Both the position numbers and the translations under genes were made by a program. Under the pieces are notes generated by a model. That model was not told where the DNA came from. It made no database searches and saw only the letters and a list, made by a program, of their open reading frames with translations. Of a stretch of 64,000 bases of DNA, positions 42,073-52,665 are shown piece by piece. The stretch is from IMG/VR virus record IMGVR_UViG_3300021387_001614, positions 1 to 64,000 of that record; one strand, written 5' to 3'. Within the stretch, counting starts at the first letter, position 1; every line of letters begins with the position of its first letter. The stretch is from a virus (taxonomy: Duplodnaviria; Caudoviricetes).

Positions 42073-42462
42073 TTAAATTTCTGTTACAATACTGTCATTA
42101 GTTATAACGTTACCCTCCTTAACGGAATAATCTATCCTCACAAAAATTGCATTTGGATTTTCTTCACTTCTTGCCACTTGTATGTCATTTAATGACACGT
42201 TGTTAACATATCTCGAAACTGCTTCCGAAATCTCTGTTTTAACACTTTTCCAAGTGTTGCTTTCATTGGGTTCGAAAATATATTTAATCAAATCCGTGCC
42301 AAATTCGGGCATTCTAACTCTTTGCCCCTTTGGTGTAAATATAACGTGCATTATCTGACTCCTAACCTTGTTTTTCTTACTTGAATTAAGGTCTACAAAG
42401 TAATTTTCTATGTCAGTGGACGTAAATGGGTATTTTATACCAAAATATTGTTTTTTAATCAT
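42073..42462 (-). CDS. baseplate protein gp25/GPW-like
   Basis: GIKYPF, IFTPKGQRVRMPEFGTDLIKYIFEP. Confidence 0.9.
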   Translation of the reverse strand: MIKKQYFGIKYPFTSTDIENYFVDLNSSKKNKVRSQIMHVIFTPKGQRVRMPEFGTDLIKYIFEPNESNTWKSVKTEISEAVSRYVNNVSLNDIQVARSEENPNAIFVRIDYSVKEGNVITNDSIVTEI

Positions 42463-44404: not shown

Positions 44405-45757
44405 ATGAAAAAATACTTGACCTTATTTAATTCCCACGCTGAATACGAACAATACGTGAGCGGTAATTTTGAGAAGCCAAACGTATCACATTGCGTTCAG
44501 GAAGATGATGTACATTATAATCCTCTACATGACTATTCAAAGGATTATCTTACTTTTGTTGCCCTTGAAGACGGTACAATATCGTTTAACATATTGGACT
44601 CAATGGGAACTGATATGATTACCTCAATCAGTTATTCAACTGATAACGGTGAAACATGGACAACAACAGCAAATCAAAACAATAAACAAGAAAACCTTTC
44701 AATTGATGTTGATGTGAATGAAGGCGATAAAGTAATGTGGAAAGGCATCGCAACACAAACGGGATACTACTTTAACGATGACGATTTTGGTTATTATGTT
44801 GGCTCGTTTTTTAGTTCTGATTGCGAGTTTGATGCAAAGGGCAATGTGATGTCATTGCTTTATGGTGATGATTTCAAGGGTGAAACAACAATAGAGGAAG
44901 ATGCTACATTTTGCCGACTATTCTCTGATACTGATGAAGGAAAAACGTGTGGTGTTGTAAACGCCAAAGAATTATCATTACCTGCTACAACGTTGGCAAA
45001 TAATTGTTATGAAAATATGTTCTATTACTGTACAAGTCTAACATCAGCGCCTGAATTACCCGCCACTACATTGGCAAGTAGTTGTTATTTTGGTATGTTC
45101 TATGGTTGTACAGGTCTCACAACAGCACCTGAGTTACCTGCAACAACATTGGTATTTGGTTGTTATCGGAGTATGTTCGAAGGTTGCACAAGTCTTACAA
45201 CGGCACCTGTATTACCTGCAACGACATTGGCAGATTATTGTTATGCTTATATGTTCAATGGTTGTACAAGCCTTGTGACAGCACCCGAATTATCTGCTAC
45301 TACATTGGCATACCATTGTTATCAAGGTATGTTCGCAAATTGTTCAAGACTTACAACAGCACCTGAGTTACCTGCTACAACATTGGTAGGTTATTGTTAT
45401 AGTAATATGTTTAGAGGCTGTGTGGGTCTTATAACAGCACCTCAGTTACCTGCTACAACATTGGCAAGTTGGTGTTATGAAAGTATGTTCCAAGGTTGTA
45501 AAAGTCTAACAACAGCACCTCAGTTACCTGCCACTACACTGACAACTTATTGCTATCAGAATATGTTCAATGGTTGCACAAAACTTAATTACATCAAGGC
45601 AATGTTTACTACAACACCAAGTACAAGTTATACAAGTGGTTGGGTAAGTGGAGTTGCTGCAACAGGTACATTTGTAAAGAACAGTGCTGCAACATGGAAT
45701 GTTACAGGTGTTAATGGTGTTCCAAGTAGATGGACTGTTCAAACAGCAAGTGCATAA
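44405..45757 (+). CDS. leucine-rich-repeat (BspA/TpLRR-related) protein A with 8 x 26-aa repeats
   Basis: Repeat LPATTLxxxCYxxMFxGCTSLTTAPE and N-terminal YLTLF...PNVS...VHYNP module. Confidence 0.85.
   Translation: MKKYLTLFNSHAEYEQYVSGNFEKPNVSHCVQEDDVHYNPLHDYSKDYLTFVALEDGTISFNILDSMGTDMITSISYSTDNGETWTTTANQNNKQENLSIDVDVNEGDKVMWKGIATQTGYYFNDDDFGYYVGSFFSSDCEFDAKGNVMSLLYGDDFKGETTIEEDATFCRLFSDTDEGKTCGVVNAKELSLPATTLANNCYENMFYYCTSLTSAPELPATTLASSCYFGMFYGCTGLTTAPELPATTLVFGCYRSMFEGCTSLTTAPVLPATTLADYCYAYMFNGCTSLVTAPELSATTLAYHCYQGMFANCSRLTTAPELPATTLVGYCYSNMFRGCVGLITAPQLPATTLASWCYESMFQGCKSLTTAPQLPATTLTTYCYQNMFNGCTKLNYIKAMFTTTPSTSYTSGWVSGVAATGTFVKNSAATWNVTGVNGVPSRWTVQTASA
44978..45601 (+). repeat. 78-bp coding tandem repeat, 8 units
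   Basis: Recurrent TTACCTGC(T/A/C)AC(A/T/G)ACATTG...TGTTAT...ATGTTC at 78-bp period. Confidence 0.9.
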
Positions 45758-45780: not shown

Positions 45781-45842
45781 AAGTGGCATTTTAAGGGTAT
45801 TTATGTTAAAATATTAACGGAACCAACAGGTGTATAGTTCCC
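45781..45842 (+). mobile_element. orphan IS1595 right end (remnant)
   Basis: 52/62 ungapped identity to 51003-51064, ending in ...CAACAGGTGTATAGTTCCC. Confidence 0.85.
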
Positions 45843-45885: not shown

Positions 45886-47085
45886 TTATTCATCAAGCGT
45901 TTCCTCTTCTCCGAATATAATATCCTCTGCCGACATTTCACCCTTATCATCGTCAGGTGAGTCCTTAATTTCTTCGAGTTTCGATAAAATATCCTTTATG
46001 TATGTCTTTTTATATTCCTCAAGTGACTCTTCGGGAATAATGCCGTTATGCACACAACACATTGTGCCTGAATACGTTATATTAAATGGTGTTGGTAGTT
46101 GATTCTTTGTCACCGCAATCTTTGTTATAATACCGTAATTATACGTATCGCCCTTTGCCGTTGCAGTGAGTTTCTTTGTTGCCGCCTTTGCAACACCACC
46201 CAAGTGAATAATCAGTCTTGCGCCATAGAAGAATGTCTTTCCACCCTTTAACTCGATTGATGGTATTCCCGGCATACCGTTCATACTGTCATTCCAAATC
46301 TTATTAACACAGAACATTGTGTTCGTGTATTTCTCACTAACTTTTCTCGATGTCGGTATTCTGTTGTTAATCAGACTGTTAAATGCCTGTGAAATTGCAC
46401 CTGCATCGAACATGTTGTTGTTCGATTTGCTTGAATATGACTTAAAGGATGTTATCGAACCAATACTATCCCATATGAAACATATTGGCTGCTTAATTTT
46501 TCCTTCATCCTGCATATCAAGGATTTCATTAATGGAAAGCGCAATATCCTCCAATACTGCAACATTTCTGCGTTTTGACACGCGCTTACCTGCTGAATGG
46601 TCAAAATCACCATATTTTTTCGTAAGCGTTTTCGTATCGAAATAAACAAAGTTGCCACGATACTTAATAATGTCAGTTGTTATTTCGCCCGTTTCTTCAT
46701 CAAGAATTTCGCCATAAACGGGAGTTGCATCAACGCCACAATCAATTGCATATTTCCAATCGAAATTGCCCTCAGTTTCATATATAACAGGTAAAATACC
46801 CTTCTTTTGACACGCTGCAATGAGACAGTTTTTAATTGTTGATTTTCCCGTATTAGACCATCCCGTTACCAAAGTCAGATATCCCATGGGGATTCCCGGC
46901 AATTTTAATGCATCTTCAAAAGCCTTTGGCAGTGGTATAAACTCTGTTGGTTTTTCCGCGTTTGACGTTTCCAAGTCGCTTCGCTTAATCGGCTTACTTG
47001 ATTCCTCTATTTCAAGTCCAAGTAACTTATTTATGTCATCAGCTGAAGGTATTACAAATGTTTTCTTTTTAATCGCTTGTTTCAT
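45886..47085 (-). CDS. RecA/UvsX-like recombinase
   Basis: GIPMGYLTLVTGWSNTGKST (Walker A), YETEG, IWDSIGS (Walker B), KGGKTFFY. Start taken at MKQAIK. Confidence 0.88.
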   Translation of the reverse strand: MKQAIKKKTFVIPSADDINKLLGLEIEESSKPIKRSDLETSNAEKPTEFIPLPKAFEDALKLPGIPMGYLTLVTGWSNTGKSTIKNCLIAACQKKGILPVIYETEGNFDWKYAIDCGVDATPVYGEILDEETGEITTDIIKYRGNFVYFDTKTLTKKYGDFDHSAGKRVSKRRNVAVLEDIALSINEILDMQDEGKIKQPICFIWDSIGSITSFKSYSSKSNNNMFDAGAISQAFNSLINNRIPTSRKVSEKYTNTMFCVNKIWNDSMNGMPGIPSIELKGGKTFFYGARLIIHLGGVAKAATKKLTATAKGDTYNYGIITKIAVTKNQLPTPFNITYSGTMCCVHNGIIPEESLEEYKKTYIKDILSKLEEIKDSPDDDKGEMSAEDIIFGEEETLDE

Positions 47086-47698
47086 ACTTTTTAACTCGTT
47101 GTTTTTCTCTAATTTTTTGTTTCCAGCATTTTCTACACATCGGTTGATAAATATCATCACCACCGACAAGAACTTGCTCACCCTCCGTTATTATATTTTC
47201 ATCCTTATCAAACCTTGCATTTATGGATGCCTTTTTGTTACATTTACAACTTGATTTTAATTCTTGAAACTCATCAGCTATTTCAAAAAGCCTTTTTGAT
47301 GCCGGAAAAAGTTTTGACCTAAAATCTGTGCGTAATCCATAACATAGAACGTTAACACCCATTAAATCAACAACGTCCGATAATTGGTCTACCTGTTCCT
47401 CAGTTAAAAACTGACATTCATCAACCAATACCCACATTAACGGTTTGGCTTGTTGTGCCATAAGAACGTTATTATATTGATGTATTGCCTCATATATATC
47501 AACGTTACTATTAACACTAACACACGCCCTTTTTAATCCTGCTCTTGATTTAATCATGTTCTTTCCATCTCGTGTATCAATGGATGGCTTAAGAACCATG
47601 AAAGGTATACCTTTTTCTTCAAAATTATACGCCGTTGCAAGGAGGTTTAGGGTTTTTGACGAACCCATTACACCATAAAAAAATCTTAGCTTAGCCAT
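47069..47698 (-). CDS. tdk: thymidine kinase
   Basis: YGVMGSSKT, KPSIDTR, LVDECQFL, YGLRTDF, CKC...CRKC. Confidence 0.95.
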   Translation of the reverse strand: MAKLRFFYGVMGSSKTLNLLATAYNFEEKGIPFMVLKPSIDTRDGKNMIKSRAGLKRACVSVNSNVDIYEAIHQYNNVLMAQQAKPLMWVLVDECQFLTEEQVDQLSDVVDLMGVNVLCYGLRTDFRSKLFPASKRLFEIADEFQELKSSCKCNKKASINARFDKDENIITEGEQVLVGGDDIYQPMCRKCWKQKIREKQRVKKYETSD

Positions 47699-47709
47699 TT
47701 ACATGTTTT

Positions 47710-48693
47710 TTAGAATGGTAACGCATCTTCTGCGTTATTATCTGTATCGGACTGAGTACCTGCCGTTATGGTATTTTTCTCAACCCAATTTGTAAAGTCG
47801 GAGTTTTCTTCTGTTAGATTTTCAGCAAGTTCCTTTTCATCTTCGATTTTTTGTTTTTCCTGCATCACAGATTTATCGACATATTTACCCAATTCTTTAT
47901 CGTAAACGGGAGTACCGCCCTCTACAATAACTGCCATATAGTCATAAGGTTTTACTGTAAATACGTCAGTCCATTTCTTTTCGTCGTTAACCCATGATTC
48001 TGCTTTATCAAAGTCGGTTGACAGTGGTGTGCTGATACTCTTGTCAGTTACCTGTACGCTTGTTTTGTTGTTAGAATCCTTTGTCAGAGTAATAACAAGG
48101 TCTTTTCCTGTATTAAGGTCAAAAATATTGTTTTCAATACCTTCTTCTTTACCTTCTTCCCACCTCGTTTTAAACAAGTTCATTATTTTATCATACACAC
48201 CATCCTTTTTTCTCGAATGAGTGAAAAGCCAAAACTTAACGCCGTCTTCCTCATGGCCACGTTCAATACATCTAACAATCCACGATTCCTTAACACGATT
48301 GAGAAATTCGATGTCACCATATTTCTTTTTCTCGATTTCCGAATTAGATGCAAACCTTAGTCGTTTAGCCTCTTCCGACGTTTCACAGAATGGGCACTTA
48401 TGTTTGTCATCTAAGTCATTTTTTTCGGGGCACACAAATGTCTTCCACCCGCTACTTGTAACTTCCTTGTTAACTTTAACGGTATGCATGTGCACCTTTT
48501 TAAATGGGCTTCCACCCTCAGGAGAAAATGGCAACAATCTGATTGTTATTTTCTTTGTGGTTTCGTCTGAACCTAACCTTGCTTGGAGATAATTTTTAAC
48601 ATTAAATTCAGTCTTCTTTTTTGGGACGTAAGTTTCCTGTTCGTTTTGGCTGATTACAGCAGCCGCATCAATGTTTACATTTAAATTACTCAT
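47710..48693 (-). CDS. single-stranded DNA-binding protein (T4 gp32-like)
   Basis: IRLLP, CP...CPFCE, IFDLNTGKDL, acidic tail ending DALPF. Confidence 0.85.
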   Translation of the reverse strand: MSNLNVNIDAAAVISQNEQETYVPKKKTEFNVKNYLQARLGSDETTKKITIRLLPFSPEGGSPFKKVHMHTVKVNKEVTSSGWKTFVCPEKNDLDDKHKCPFCETSEEAKRLRFASNSEIEKKKYGDIEFLNRVKESWIVRCIERGHEEDGVKFWLFTHSRKKDGVYDKIMNLFKTRWEEGKEEGIENNIFDLNTGKDLVITLTKDSNNKTSVQVTDKSISTPLSTDFDKAESWVNDEKKWTDVFTVKPYDYMAVIVEGGTPVYDKELGKYVDKSVMQEKQKIEDEKELAENLTEENSDFTNWVEKNTITAGTQSDTDNNAEDALPF

Positions 48694-48771
48694 AAAAAAT
48701 TAATATTTAAAAATGCGTATCAGTATACGCTTAAATTCAGTGCAAATATACATAAAAAATGTTAAAAAACC

Positions 48772-48811
48772 AAAATTCCGGCAAATTATTTTTTTAAAAT
48801 GCCGGAATTTT
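48772..48811 (-). terminator. hairpin/terminator upstream of the SSB promoter
   Basis: AAAATTCCGGCA...TGCCGGAATTTT. Confidence 0.65.
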
Positions 48812-49023
48812 TGTGTTGGCTTTAAGTACCATTGGCATTTACTGCCAACTGCTATATTATTATCGGGAACTATATACCTGTTGTCCCCGAACATAGCGAC
48901 TAGCAAACTTTAACTTTTGTCTAGCTATCCTTAACTTAAAAAATTCCCGTTTTACTGGAAAAATGCGTACCTTTGTATTACCTTTAAGACAAAGGAATAA
49001 CATTCAGTAAAACGGGAATAATT

Positions 49024-50019
49024 ATGATAGATTTCACAAATTTCAAGTCACTCAAATCGGTAATCAGACACTTCAACAATGAAGACATCTGCAAGCAAAC
49101 GCTTGTGGAGGCACGTTGGGGTGGCGATGTTGTTTGTCCTCATTGCGGACAGCACCATTGCACCATGCGCAAGGACGGACGTTATCGCTGCAACCATTGC
49201 AAGCATAACTTCTCTTGTACCACAGGTACAATATTTCAGAACACCAAGTTGCCACTTCAAACTTGGTTCATTGCCATGTATCAGGTGTCTTCACACAAGA
49301 AGGGCATTTCCTCATTGCAGATAATGCGTGACTGCGAGGTCACTCAGAAGACCGCTTGGTTCATTCTGCACAAGATTCGTGGTCTCTACGGCATTACCGA
49401 TGAGATTGCCCTTGACGGAGAGGTGGAGATGGACGAGATGTACCTTGGTGGACGTGAAATAAACAAGCACGAAAGCAAGAAGACTGAGGGTACACAGGGT
49501 CGCTCTACCAAGACCAAAACACCAATCTTCGGTATGATTCAGCGTGGTGGCAACGTTGTTGCAATGAAGGTGGACGATACAAAGGGTGCTACCTTGATGC
49601 CCATCGTGAGCCAATTCGTTGAGAGTGGTGCTACCACTTATACGGATGAAGCCAACATCTACCACAAGTTGTCAGAGAACGGCTATGAGCACCTTTTCGT
49701 TAATCACTCACAGCGTGAATACGTCCGTGCCAATGACATTCATACCAACGGAATTGAGGGGTTTTGGGCACATTTCAAGCGTGTCATTTTCTCTACCTAT
49801 CACAGCGTTTCCAAGGACTATGTACAGCGTTATATTGACGAGCAGTCATATCGTTGGAATACCCGTAAATGGAATGCTTCTGAGCGTTTTGAGGATATGT
49901 TCAAGAAGGCTGCAAAGTCCTTTGAGTATGCTGACGTTCTGAGCCTTTCAAGCGTTATTGACGTTGTTGCTTGGAAGACCAAGCACGATAGTTACTATTG
50001 GGCAGGAAAGGTTGCATAA
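49024..50019 (+). CDS. IS1595-family (ISXO2-like) DDE transposase
   Basis: Zinc ribbon CPHC...CNHC, TGTIFQNTKLPL, KKGISS HTH, EMDEMYLGG, YTDE, NHS, HTNGIEGFW, YIDEQSYRWN. GC visibly higher than the flanks. Confidence 0.95.
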   Translation: MIDFTNFKSLKSVIRHFNNEDICKQTLVEARWGGDVVCPHCGQHHCTMRKDGRYRCNHCKHNFSCTTGTIFQNTKLPLQTWFIAMYQVSSHKKGISSLQIMRDCEVTQKTAWFILHKIRGLYGITDEIALDGEVEMDEMYLGGREINKHESKKTEGTQGRSTKTKTPIFGMIQRGGNVVAMKVDDTKGATLMPIVSQFVESGATTYTDEANIYHKLSENGYEHLFVNHSQREYVRANDIHTNGIEGFWAHFKRVIFSTYHSVSKDYVQRYIDEQSYRWNTRKWNASERFEDMFKKAAKSFEYADVLSLSSVIDVVAWKTKHDSYYWAGKVA

Positions 50020-50022
50020 ATG

Positions 50023-50055
50023 AAATTGAGCAACCACTATTGGATTACTCAATTT
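50023..50055. terminator. hairpin between the convergent transposase and passenger genes
   Basis: AAATTGAG(caacca ctat tggatta)CTCAATTT. Confidence 0.6.
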
Positions 50056-50072
50056 GTATGTCATTATAGAAC

Positions 50073-50888
50073 TTAAAGTATTCCTTGTGAAGTCCAATTT
50101 CGATATCCAAGATTTCCATCATTTCCCATCCAAGACGAGTAATCACTACCACTTGGATAATATAATACTCCACCTTCTTTGACATATGCCCAAAAGCCTG
50201 ATTGTATTGTTGGTGCAATAGTTGGATATGCGTAGATGGTTTCAAGACTCGTACATCCTTGGAACGCATTAATAATCATTGTTGATACACTACTTGGTAT
50301 TGTTATGCTTTGTAAACTACTACAATTGTAGAAAGCACCACCATCAATACTTGTGACACTATTGCCCATTATTACATTTGTAAGACTTGTACAATGACCA
50401 AAAGCACTACCACCAATGCTTGTAACACTATTCGGTATTGTTATATTCAATAAGTTTGTACAACTATTAAACGTACCAGCCATAATTGCGGTAACATTAG
50501 TTGGAATATTTACATTTGTAAGACTTGTACAATATTCGAATACATTATAATTAAGGCTTGTAACACTATTTGATATTGTTGCCTCTGTAAGAGCGGAACA
50601 ATGGGAAAATGCACCGTTTCCAATACTTGTACATAATTCCCCAACCTCAACACTAACAAGCGTGTTTTTATATATATCACTTACCATTGCTTTTGTCAGT
50701 TCTCCGCTTCCTTCAAGTTCAACTACGCTGTCATCACTGAGTGTCAGTTTGCAGAAGAAAGGTGGCTTATTATAATGTACCGTATTATCTCCCTCTACAT
50801 ATGATACATAAGGTTCTATATATGTTTCACCATCTTCATAAGTCAGTCTTTCAGCATCGGTGCTGAATAGTTTTAAGTAATCTCCCAT
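50073..50888 (-). CDS. BspA/TpLRR leucine-rich-repeat protein B (IS passenger)
   Basis: About six 23-aa VTSIGxxAFxxCTSLTxIxIPNS repeats and N-terminal YLKLF...PYVS...VHYNKP module. Confidence 0.9.
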   Translation of the reverse strand: MGDYLKLFSTDAERLTYEDGETYIEPYVSYVEGDNTVHYNKPPFFCKLTLSDDSVVELEGSGELTKAMVSDIYKNTLVSVEVGELCTSIGNGAFSHCSALTEATISNSVTSLNYNVFEYCTSLTNVNIPTNVTAIMAGTFNSCTNLLNITIPNSVTSIGGSAFGHCTSLTNVIMGNSVTSIDGGAFYNCSSLQSITIPSSVSTMIINAFQGCTSLETIYAYPTIAPTIQSGFWAYVKEGGVLYYPSGSDYSSWMGNDGNLGYRNWTSQGIL

Positions 50889-51071
50889 ATTTATATATGA
50901 TATTAGTTATGTTATTATTCTACAATATAAATATCCCGACAAGAAGAGAAATTCCTGTTGGGATATTGTTTATTTTGATATTTTGTATTATATTTGTACC
51001 CGAAATGGTAATTTAAAGATATTTATGTTAAAACATTAACGGGGACAACAGGTATATAGTTCCCTTATTAT

Positions 51072-51632
51072 CTATTTTTTACGAAATCTTTTCGGGCGGT
51101 CTTTTAGGTTACGATTCCCATAATATGAATTCATCAAACCCTTTGTTCTTCTTTTGGCACTCCTTGAGAATCTTTTATAAAAATCTGATAATTCATCATT
51201 GGATAAATCATCGAAATTTTCATAATCATTGAAATGATACGAATCATACGCAAAAATACTATCCGGATTTTCTTTATAATGTCCAAAATCTATACTAATA
51301 TCATCATCACCTATTGGTTTTCTCCATTCTTCAAAGTCATCTCCGTGTATATAATTAGAAAGTGTCCCGACATAATTGTCTTTATCTTTCCACGAATATG
51401 ATTGGAATACTCCATAATCTTTGTCATCAGGCATACAATATTCAAGAGTTTCATCTTGGTCTTCAACCGCCCCATCTTCGAGTGACCTAAGAAAATTATA
51501 AAGGTCTTTGATTTTGTATTTATTCCACTCTCTATCTATCTCTTCCTTTGAAGCCTCTCTCAATATTTTTTTTACCGACCTCTTTACAATCTTATGCAAG
51601 TCAGACTCTGTTAATCTTACTCTTTTTTTCAT
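51072..51632 (-). CDS. putative internal head protein with LTESDLH leader
   Basis: MKKRVRLTESDLHKIVKRSVKKILREAS, acidic core, basic tail. Confidence 0.65.
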   Translation of the reverse strand: MKKRVRLTESDLHKIVKRSVKKILREASKEEIDREWNKYKIKDLYNFLRSLEDGAVEDQDETLEYCMPDDKDYGVFQSYSWKDKDNYVGTLSNYIHGDDFEEWRKPIGDDDISIDFGHYKENPDSIFAYDSYHFNDYENFDDLSNDELSDFYKRFSRSAKRRTKGLMNSYYGNRNLKDRPKRFRKK

Positions 51633-51662
51633 ATTGTTTTTATATGCATTCATCAAATTATT

Positions 51663-52496
51663 TTAATAACCAAATATCTTATTTATATCCTGCTTCAGGT
51701 CATCATCAACATAAAAACTTTGTGCCATATCTCTTTCTGTCATGTCATCAACGTCATTATTGGTGATTACATATTCTTTTGATGTTGGCTCTTGGTTGTC
51801 AAAATATGCGTCATAATTGCTTGTCATACCTTTTTGTTTCCAATAATCAACAGGATTAACGTTAAATGGATATGAATCGAGTGAACGCAAATTCAATTTT
51901 TCGGTTTGTGTCGGGTTTCTTTTTTGGAATTCCTGATTTAACGCCTCGATGTTATTATTATTGCTGTCAATCATGGTTTCCATTTTTTCGATTGCTGTTA
52001 AGAGTTGGTCGATTCGATGATTAACCTTAACCACATCACGCCCTACCGCATTAACTTTATCATTAACCTTTTCCTCTGCGTTGGTAATATCTTCGACATC
52101 AATAACTTCTTCTTCATCACCACCCATAGCGTCGTCCATTGGCATACCGTCATCCATTGGCATATCGCCACCCATGGAATCATCCATAGGGGGTTCATCC
52201 ATTGGCATACCGTCTGTATTTGGGTCGCCCATTGGTGCACCGCCCGCATTAGGGTCGCCCATTGGTGCACCGCCCGCATTGGTGTCATCCATTGGCATAC
52301 CGTCTGCATTTGGGTCGCCCATTGGTGCACCGCCTGCATCCTGAGGCTGTTCGCCGCCCATAGGGTCGTTATTATTCATGTCTTGGTCATCATCAGCCTC
52401 TTCAACAGTACCATAGCCAAAACCTTCTACAATTCTCTTAAAGTGCTTATGTGCCTCATAAAGATTGTTTTCCTTAAGATATTTTACGTTTGTCAT
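51663..52496 (-). CDS. putative prohead scaffold/core protein with acidic G/P/M/D repeats
   Basis: GGAPMGDPNA/DGMPMDD repeats, EEEVIDV, coiled coil, LRSLDSYPFN. Confidence 0.6.
   Translation of the reverse strand: MTNVKYLKENNLYEAHKHFKRIVEGFGYGTVEEADDDQDMNNNDPMGGEQPQDAGGAPMGDPNADGMPMDDTNAGGAPMGDPNAGGAPMGDPNTDGMPMDEPPMDDSMGGDMPMDDGMPMDDAMGGDEEEVIDVEDITNAEEKVNDKVNAVGRDVVKVNHRIDQLLTAIEKMETMIDSNNNNIEALNQEFQKRNPTQTEKLNLRSLDSYPFNVNPVDYWKQKGMTSNYDAYFDNQEPTSKEYVITNNDVDDMTERDMAQSFYVDDDLKQDINKIFGY
52141..52340 (-). repeat. 30-bp coding tandem repeats
   Basis: ATTGGTGCACCGCCCGCATT / ATTGGCATACCGTC units at 30-bp period. Confidence 0.8.
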
Positions 52497-52500
52497 TTCT

Positions 52501-52665
52501 TTAGTCAATCAATAATTCTTTATTATCTTCTGTTAAAACCGTTACTGAACTTTCAGTTCTCTCGATTAAGCCCCTATCTTTTTTGATACGCTTAAACTCT
52601 TGGCATAAAGTCTCGTTACCGAGAATTTCTTCTGCCATTTTAATTTTTTCTTTTGTATCCATCAT
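52501..52665 (-). CDS. small hypothetical protein (54 aa, below the track cutoff)
   Basis: MMDTKEKIKMAEEILG...KKDRGLIERTESSVTVLTEDNKELLID, coupled to both neighbours. Confidence 0.7.
   Translation of the reverse strand: MMDTKEKIKMAEEILGNETLCQEFKRIKKDRGLIERTESSVTVLTEDNKELLID

Follow-up and report, generated by a model that had tools for sequence, protein, structure and literature searches.

The locus described here raises the question of how an intact insertion sequence (IS) with a phage-type gene inside it comes to lie in a virus genome, and whether it strayed there from a bacterium or is adapted to phages. The stretch that was analysed (the window) is the first 64 kb of the 146,936-bp IMG/VR virus record IMGVR_UViG_3300021387_001614, the CheckV completeness of which is 44%, and the element, here called ISa, occupies positions 48865-51064. 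We consider it likely that ISa is an intact, recently inserted and phage-adapted transporter IS, belonging to a clade that is shared between phages and hosts and in which passenger genes are swapped within a constant frame. An initial annotation of the window had described perfect 25-bp inverted repeats (IRs) with an 8-bp target-site duplication, an intact and GC-richer IS1595 transposase, and a convergent AT-rich BspA-type leucine-rich repeat (LRR) gene inside the IRs, and all of this was borne out. The two IR arms form the outstanding single pair in the output of a repeat finder, and the element with its duplication is made up as follows:

48857-48864, no strand assigned: left copy of the target-site duplication, TTATTATC, 8 bp (from the sequence)
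48865-48889, plus strand: left IR (IRL), GGGAACTATATACCTGTTGTCCCCG, 25 nt, 100% complementary to the right arm (repeat finder)
48943-48957 and 49005-49019, plus strand: 15-bp perfect inverted repeat around the transposase promoter box, ending 4 nt before the ATG (repeat finder)
48968-48975, plus strand: transposase promoter box TACCTTTG, of the host type TAnnTTTG, which fits the Bacteroidota -7 box
49024-50019, plus strand: full-length IS1595-family DDE transposase, 331 aa (Pfam)
50073-50888, minus strand: passenger LRR gene, 271 aa, convergent with the transposase (Pfam LRR_5, E 4e-48)
50926-50935, minus strand: late-type promoter motif GATATTTATA, the end of which is 37 nt before the passenger ATG (motif scan)
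50931-50966, minus strand: hairpin with a 10/11-bp stem that overlaps the upstream side of the motif and is part of the conserved leader of the passenger slot (read from the sequence)
51018-51027, plus strand: subterminal, outward-facing box GATATTTATG, ~12 nt inside the right IR (comparison with relatives)
51040-51064, minus strand: right IR (IRR; repeat finder)
51065-51072, no strand assigned: right copy of the duplication, TTATTATC, directly outside the right arm

The GC content is 45-49% in the transposase gene, about 34-36% in the passenger (cargo) gene and 30-37% in the flanks. To judge from its sequence the transposase looks functional. It matches DDE_Tnp_IS1595 (ISXO2-like; PF12762) with an E-value of 8e-45 over positions 2-153 of the 153-position profile, as well as Zn_ribbon_IS1595 (PF12760; E 2e-12), and its 331 residues compare with 333-334 in close relatives. 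In an alignment of 23 transposase copies the residues D137, D208 and E245 are invariant, as are the zinc-ribbon cysteines 38, 41, 56 and 59 (CxxC...CxxC); K252 of ISa stands seven residues past E245, and the adjacent R253 is again invariant in the 23 copies. The hairpin that the 15-bp repeat could form (48943-49019) would hide the ribosome site in read-through transcripts.

ISa has the features by which the IS1595 family is recognised, i.e., the catalytic domain, the zinc ribbon, short IRs and the 8-bp duplication, and as the LRR_5 gene at 50073-50888 lies between its own transposase gene and IRR it is a transporter IS (tIS). Such elements are established in the IS1595 family (Siguier, Gagnevin and Chandler 2009, cited in PMC3129680 and PMC7986276), and ISa resembles them in its single DDE transposase with an N-terminal zinc ribbon, in its short IRs and 8-bp duplication, and in carrying a passenger without a role in transposition inside its ends. 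It differs from them in that the passengers of its clade are phage-type genes, which sit in a slot with a phage late motif and are swapped in a constant frame, and in that the clade occupies both the genomes of lytic-type jumbo phages and the host chromosome.

The insertion site itself suggests that ISa arrived lately. ISa lies among phage genes, including those for a UvsX-like recombinase (45886-47181), a thymidine kinase (TK; 47069-47698) and a gp32-like single-stranded DNA-binding protein (47710-48693). About 45 related phages have the gene order orf234-orf281-gp32-TK-UvsX, many of them with ~170 bp between orf281 and gp32, and in none of the ~45 relatives in which orf281 adjoins gp32 is there an IS at this site. 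The insertion of ISa is probably recent because these relatives are without it, which agrees with the initial annotation. Contigs with the same gene order measure 280-412 kb, and given these relatives the label of jumbo phage seems reasonable for the phage of the window. In the window the interval between orf281 and gp32 holds two features beside ISa:

51072-51656, minus strand: 194-aa gene with an N-terminal RLTESDLHKIVK tag, a variable hot-spot gene between orf281 and gp32
48839-48865, plus strand: orphan right end of the type of ISb (a second IS1595 element of this phage, see below), 22 of 27 positions identical to the right IR of ISb, with ISa inserted into its tip

ISa was inserted exactly at the stop codon of the tag gene, the first base of which (CTA on the plus strand) is the last base of the right duplication, and both neighbours and the gp32 promoter are unharmed. 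The site without the insertion can be reconstructed as ...TGCTATA, a single TTATTATC, TATTTTTT.... The nearest relative (L066; its gp32 is 75% identical) has a 468-aa tag-containing open reading frame (ORF) at this place, with neither an IS nor the orphan end, and the orphan end is likewise not present upstream of gp32 in L113 and L069 (L-numbers denote loci on other contigs found by searches, either viral contigs or metagenome-assembled genomes, MAGs). The ends of related elements may be preferred targets; in another locus, L160, two ends stand back to back, 7 nt apart. An assembly artefact, in which reads of a bacterial IS were joined to phage reads, could explain why the GC content of the transposase is unlike that of the phage. 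It is hardly conceivable here, as the element is bordered by an exact 8-bp duplication and then by phage sequence at either end, which on the right runs on into the conserved orf194-orf281 block and on the left into the conserved gp32 promoter.

One argument for adaptation to phages is the wiring of the promoters. In the 146,936-bp contig, TATTTATA occurs within 60 nt upstream of the start, in coding orientation, for 15 of 115 genes where 0.9 would be expected from its genome-wide density, and its reverse complement is upstream of only four of the 115. The genes so preceded include a gp19-like tail tube gene (73152-73640), the baseplate gp25 gene (42073-42462), a gene whose 1215-aa product resembles a tape-measure family weakly and only locally, and both resident LRR genes of the phage. 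The cargo of ISa is hence preceded by the same motif as virion genes, as the initial annotation had it, and GATATTTATA behaves like a late-class promoter element as far as its distribution goes. In contrast gp32 has a host-type TTTG...TATATTTG promoter, which is conserved in relatives. The same division holds in the clade: TATTTAT lies upstream of ~24 of ~50 passenger ORFs, among them nearly every first passenger, and upstream of none of the 23 transposase genes, where TAnnTTTG is present in many cases. This is difficult to reconcile with a dead-end accident, in which an ordinary Prevotella transporter IS, without any phage adaptation and with AT-rich bacterial accessory genes as passengers, would have hopped into a phage. 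Passenger-bearing IS1595 members have been described from bacteria (Siguier et al. 2009, cited in PMC3129680), but the passengers here carry the phage motif and not a host promoter, and their families recur as resident phage genes. Such an accident is improbable, also in the light of the phage cassettes and the distribution of ends described below.

The initial annotation had further proposed that the IS captured a phage late gene together with its promoter. The comparison with the closest relatives of ISa speaks for another course of events. ISa is 80-87% identical to them from its left terminus to ~65 nt before the transposase stop, unrelated over the cargo ORF, and similar again at the right end. 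The 110 bp upstream of the cargo ATG (50886-50996), with the hairpin and GATATTTATA, are 81-82% identical to L024 and L050, and in L024 the gene behind this leader encodes a tag protein of 131 aa that is unrelated to the cargo of ISa. The closest cargo, in turn (P0001 in L146; 89% identical in amino acids and 91% in nucleotides) lies just inside the end of another element, where it adjoins a transposase gene only 73% identical in DNA and is preceded by a different leader; its homology to the cargo of ISa covers the ORF, 33 nt downstream and 4 nt upstream, and stops short of the leader. As the leader is shared in front of a different gene, the promoter region is a part of the transposon scaffold, and the LRR gene entered a slot that was already there and was not captured along with the promoter. 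The same pattern of swapping is seen in the phage/bacterial element pairs L018/L037, L016/L033 and L017/L034. The capture, by this very IS, of one of the phage's resident late LRR genes plus its promoter would fit the presence of the late motif and the 40-51% likeness of the cargo to a 1533-aa LRR protein of the phage; it is very unlikely, because of the shared leader and the point at which the homology to L146 ends, and because no donor-like gene is present in the 147-kb contig, where the best DNA identity is 69-77% over repeat units.

The cargo protein scores 163 bits against LRR_5 (Pfam cut-off 27.7) and consists of an N-terminal module of ~45 aa (N-module; YLKxF...P(N/Y)VS...VHYN), a PFFCKLTL segment, BspA-type LRRs and a conserved C-terminal cap. 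In its AlphaFold model (pLDDT 92.4) the LRRs form a solenoid and the N-terminal module is folded. A fold search with this model gave as top PDB matches 4gt6, 6mlx and 4fs7, which are BspA-type LRR proteins of gut bacteria, and also LRR proteins of uncultured gut phages; these matches were generic to the LRR, with nothing informative on the N-module. The cargo thus has the LRR_5 repeats and the solenoid fold of the BspA-type surface proteins. It differs from them in export and anchoring, as its N-terminus (MGDYLKLFSTDAERLTYEDGE) has no hydrophobic signal and a Pfam scan found neither a Por_Secre_tail (Por/T9SS tail) nor an anchor domain, and in having the N-module, which is common to phage LRR proteins and lectin-like (Lcl_C) passengers. 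The best resident match is the 1533-aa LRR protein (positions 139340-143941 of the record), 40-51% identical in all four parts, from the N-module and PFFCKLTL segment through the repeats to the C-terminus, and the cargo reads as a short version of it. The initial annotation had compared the N-terminus of the cargo with another resident gene:

44405-45757, plus strand: resident 450-aa LRR gene with the same N-module and GATATTTATA 17 nt upstream (Pfam and sequence comparison)

This likeness is real (E 2e-5) but weak, at 27-29% (29% over 91 aa at the N-terminus), and the match to the 1533-aa protein is much better. Full-length homologues of the cargo (50-56% identity) were found in AT-rich contigs of up to 348 kb; in L155 and L157 they have the same motif upstream, and the one in L157 stands directly before a gene with a Peptidase_S74 domain, typical of tail fibres, which is a further point against an accidental bacterial origin of the passengers. 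As to the role of the protein, a virion-associated or intracellular binder is a guess that we hold to be less likely than not.

ISa is one of many elements of the same build. With the transposase as the query, 42 loci were recovered from prokaryote genomes and 10 from viral contigs, and both ends could be located for 23 elements. The consensus end of the clade is GGGAAC(T/G)ATATAC(C/T)TGTTG, the IR core is common to more than 30 related elements, and the exact 25-mer of ISa also borders elements in L013, L024 and L030. Most of the 23 complete elements are flanked by exact 8-bp AT-rich duplications and, being 1.9-4.2 kb in length, all of them have passengers. Across the clade the GC content is 42-49% in transposase genes and 27-38% in passengers, regardless of whether that of the flanks is 31% or 55%. 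Three passenger families stand out. First, the commonest class (16 members) comprises proteins with an N-terminal RLTESDLHRIVKESV tag. Second, seven members including the cargo in the window have the N-module (YLKxF...PNVS...VHYN) fused to LRR_5 or to weak lectin-like (Lcl_C/Fib_succ) matches; a DUF285 passenger (L045) falls outside this cluster. Third, there are six 141-aa CWLxEDKLPP proteins. Many relatives have a (T/G)ATATTTAT-like box, at one end or at both, which is as far from the terminus as the subterminal box of ISa.

In the related phages similar ends also enclose genes without a transposase. The exact 25-mer end was found in two viral contigs of one sample; in one of them (L013) it borders a 1279-bp element with the duplication TACATTAT, two small tag-protein genes and no transposase. 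The 19-nt consensus end was found in 56 stretches of ~40 viral contigs, many of them of 235-412 kb, and three of the ~40 also hold the gp32-TK-UvsX block. The following cassettes have exact 8-bp duplications and no IS1595 transposase:

L161, 1028 bp: N-module with Lcl_C-like match
L168, 902 bp: tag protein
L177, 1842 bp: 542-aa LRR_5 protein
L208, 1747 bp: Big_2 and LRR_5
L169, 9438-11553: TnpB (OrfB_IS605 and Cas12f1-like TNB)
L185, 10572-12129: TnpB (OrfB_IS605 and Cas12f1-like TNB)
L210: three ORFs

The initial annotation had suggested tabulating what lies between IR pairs, and different LRR cargos were indeed found between such ends in related phages (e.g., L177 and L208). So many cassettes with perfect duplications in related phages would not be expected from a single accidental hop. 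In addition pairs of the same ends enclose only 165-560 bp, in the manner of miniature inverted-repeat transposable elements (MITE-like; L176:1541-1705, L184:5851-6088, L159:2900-3289, L166:607-985 and L171:3615-4130). Both the transposase-less cassettes and the miniatures could be moved in trans. The cassettes in L013, L161, L168, L177, L208 and L210 resemble mobile insertion cassettes (MICs) such as IS231-MIC231 of Bacillus cereus (De Palmenaer et al. 2004, cited in PMC3129680), in that one or a few genes lie between cognate IS ends without a transposase and are presumably moved in trans. The difference is that the cassettes here are in phages and their cargo is phage-type LRR, lectin-like or tag proteins or TnpB; ISa itself encodes its own transposase, i.e., it is autonomous and not a MIC. 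ISa is a variation on the known tIS and MIC systems that is of interest for its probable phage adaptation.

The clade is not confined to phages. Several elements are located between housekeeping genes in rumen Prevotella chromosomes, with their duplications intact:

L035: DcuA/B transporter and phosphoglucomutase
L043: Na/alanine symporter and superoxide dismutase
L029: GH53 and D-Ala-D-Ala peptidase
L044: TonB receptor and acetyl-xylan esterase
L065: peptidase C1
L031: serine dehydratase

In L031 and L035 the passengers are N-module plus LRR_5 proteins, the former with the phage motif upstream and the latter with TAnnTTTG at -60 and no TATTTAT. The proposal in the initial annotation that the element acts as a phage-to-phage shuttle for LRR proteins is consistent with the different LRR cargos between such ends in phages, but it is too narrow, since these two chromosomal elements point to traffic between phage and host too. 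The same annotation took it that its model would fail if the same element were common in bacteria without any phage association; of this, the class does occur in bacteria, but most of the chromosomal first passengers appear from their upstream regions to be still wired for phage.

The phage contig itself contains further traces of the clade. A second IS1595 element, ISb, is located at 75084-77587 of the record (L010:3085-5588), with 27-bp ends that are 93% complementary, a transposase of 339 aa that is 53% identical to that of ISa, and two passengers of 273 and 156 aa without Pfam matches, one of them with the motif 6 nt upstream. Two orphan ends were found besides the one next to ISa:

45781-45842, plus strand: orphan ISa-type right end right after the LRR gene 44405-45757, 84% identical over 66 nt, IR with 4 mismatches
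100509-100533 of the record (L009:4510-4534): orphan end with 5 mismatches to the ISa IR, overlapping the last codons of a 649-aa ORF

For the former no left end was found within 7 mismatches, and the preceding gene is only 33 nt from the LRR gene. The resident LRR gene 44405-45757 is probably the remnant of an older cassette.

Where the clade lives bears on all of these explanations. The consensus end was found in 7 of 401 genomes sampled from the family of the genome that holds L024 (13 ends in ~1.15 Gb), and one copy each was counted in four carrier MAGs. In the phage contig, by comparison, there are two elements plus three orphan ends within 147 kb (0.147 Mb), and at least three ends are present in each of several related contigs. 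The ends thus appear to be far denser in this phage group than in the sampled host-family genomes, in a comparison that is rough because repeats are lost in MAG assemblies and the viral contigs, which came from a pattern search, were unevenly sampled. An ordinary host IS that entered a phage by chance would hardly be so rare in these 401 genomes. The numbers also bear on a defensive function, in which the elements would be bacterial, their passengers would mimic virion or packaged proteins, be switched on by phage late transcription and spoil assembly, and the phage copies would be by-catch. The retention of the phage motif and of intact passengers in chromosomal copies fits such a decoy, as does the single copy per carrier MAG. 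We regard it as highly improbable, since there is no sign of interference, ends occur in only those seven genomes, and the same passenger families are resident or cassette genes in phages, where they are more numerous.

Several points besides the roughness of the density comparison weigh against phage adaptation or against the way it was read here. The nearest relatives of the ISa transposase are all in MAG contigs (residues 1-325 are 81-87% identical to copies in rumen Prevotella/Prevotellaceae MAGs) while viral copies reach only 69%, and its GC content is host-like, both of which would also suit an accidental hop from Prevotella. No target duplication could be recognised around ISb when one was looked for. 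The late timing of the motif is deduced from the genes it precedes (tail tube and baseplate), not from expression. As no second identical copy of ISa, empty-site read or excision product was seen, we infer transposition activity only from the intact ORF, the perfect ends and the absence of ISa from relatives. In a maximum-likelihood tree, a quick IQ-TREE run rather than a careful search, viral and MAG copies of the transposase interleave near the tips, and ISa belongs to a well-supported group of 11 rows in which the others are MAG copies except for L019 and L020 from viral contigs (with bacterial-like flank GC). Finally, the N-module had no match by tblastn in deposited phage genomes. Megablast of the whole element gave no match among deposited phages and plasmids either, and tblastn of the transposase against deposited phages gave only three weak matches (35-41%), so the system is not represented among deposited phage genomes. 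On balance the clade looks phage-centred with spill-over into hosts, and ISa itself may have been transferred in either direction. The word host-derived in the initial annotation goes too far for this reason: the nearest transposases are in Prevotella MAGs, but ends are rare in the 401 genomes and the copies interleave in the tree.

If ISa is phage-adapted, its life cycle might be pictured as follows. Transcribed from a promoter of the Bacteroidota host type, the transposase would bind to the 25-bp ends and bring about insertion at AT-rich targets of 8 bp. The passenger slot between the transposase gene and the right end has a conserved leader consisting of the hairpin, GATATTTATA and a 5' untranslated region, through which the passenger would be transcribed along with the phage late genes; in ISa the slot holds a 271-aa BspA-type LRR protein with the N-module of the phage's own LRR proteins. 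Recombination would exchange passengers inside a frame made up of the left end with the transposase gene, the slot leader and the right end. The clade, including cassettes and miniatures that may be moved in trans, seems to reside mainly in jumbo phages of rumen Prevotella and also lands in host chromosomes.

It is tempting to go further and regard phage-adapted IS1595 transposons and trans-mobilised cassettes as a main vehicle by which late accessory genes are exchanged among rumen Prevotella jumbo phages, a tentative thought which we find somewhat short of an even chance. The genes exchanged would be LRR, lectin-like and Ig-like binders on a common N-terminal adaptor, tag proteins and TnpB. 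With the transposase wired to a host promoter and the cargo to late transcription by the phage, the host chromosome would be a silent reservoir. If the clade is indeed phage-adapted, modules for binding and accessory functions could be swapped by means of a transposase, both among uncultivated jumbo phages and with their hosts. This flux of genes would then be open to direct test, as the IR pairs offer a simple handle by which the pool of mobile accessory genes in these phages could be catalogued. Phages are reported to tolerate ISs poorly and to be poor IS shuttles (Leclercq, Gilbert and Cordaux, PMC3429520); the clade described here appears to thrive in large lytic-type phage genomes, with harmless insertions in intergenic hot spots and phage genes under phage control. 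No description of IS1595-type transposons or cassettes with phage-wired cargo in jumbo phages was found in a limited set of literature, and one large survey of jumbo phages does not mention transposases.

A related kind of exchange is known from T4-type phages, which shuffle accessory genes at promoter/stem-loop (PeSL) cassettes without a transposase (PMC2839356, PMC4122927). In both systems variable accessory genes are found in hyperplastic spots between conserved core genes. In the T4-type phages such genes are bordered by conserved promoter and stem-loop motifs as points of exchange, and in the ISa clade, too, a hairpin together with a promoter-like box is present in the slot leader and at the ends of the elements. 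PeSL exchange differs in that it lacks a transposase, terminal IRs and a duplication, whereas here transposition would move the element and recombination would act only in passenger swaps.

Some further features of the ends, the passengers and the flanking genes were observed. About 20 elements (e.g., ISa at 51018-51027) have an outward TGTATATTTAT box, at one end or at both, that lies ~20-30 nt inward from the terminal repeat and follows a terminator-like hairpin; the transposase might bind there, or the box might act as an outward late promoter by which transcription downstream is restored. Some of the miniature elements are in viral contigs of 43-50% GC, and the cassette in L169 also holds a 251-aa ORF with a GIY-YIG-like start and no Pfam match. 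The RLTESDLHRIVKESV(K/N)RVL peptide, for which there is no Pfam family, is found at the N-terminus and sometimes internally in otherwise unrelated small proteins. Genes with the tag are 51072-51656 in the window, 76197-77018 and 138605-139054 in the record, and many passengers in L013, L024-L026, L029, L043, L044 and L168, and it also marks variable genes beside IS hot spots. The region upstream of gp32 (48695-48800 in the window; also L066, L069 and L113) has an upstream hairpin as well, and in the relatives a TATTTATAG box just upstream of the promoter. On the other side of ISa, orf281 (51663-52508), which is conserved beside gp32 in ~45 phages, contains a GC-rich (~50%), degenerate run of PMGD/GGAPMGDPN repeats, the length of which varies among relatives.

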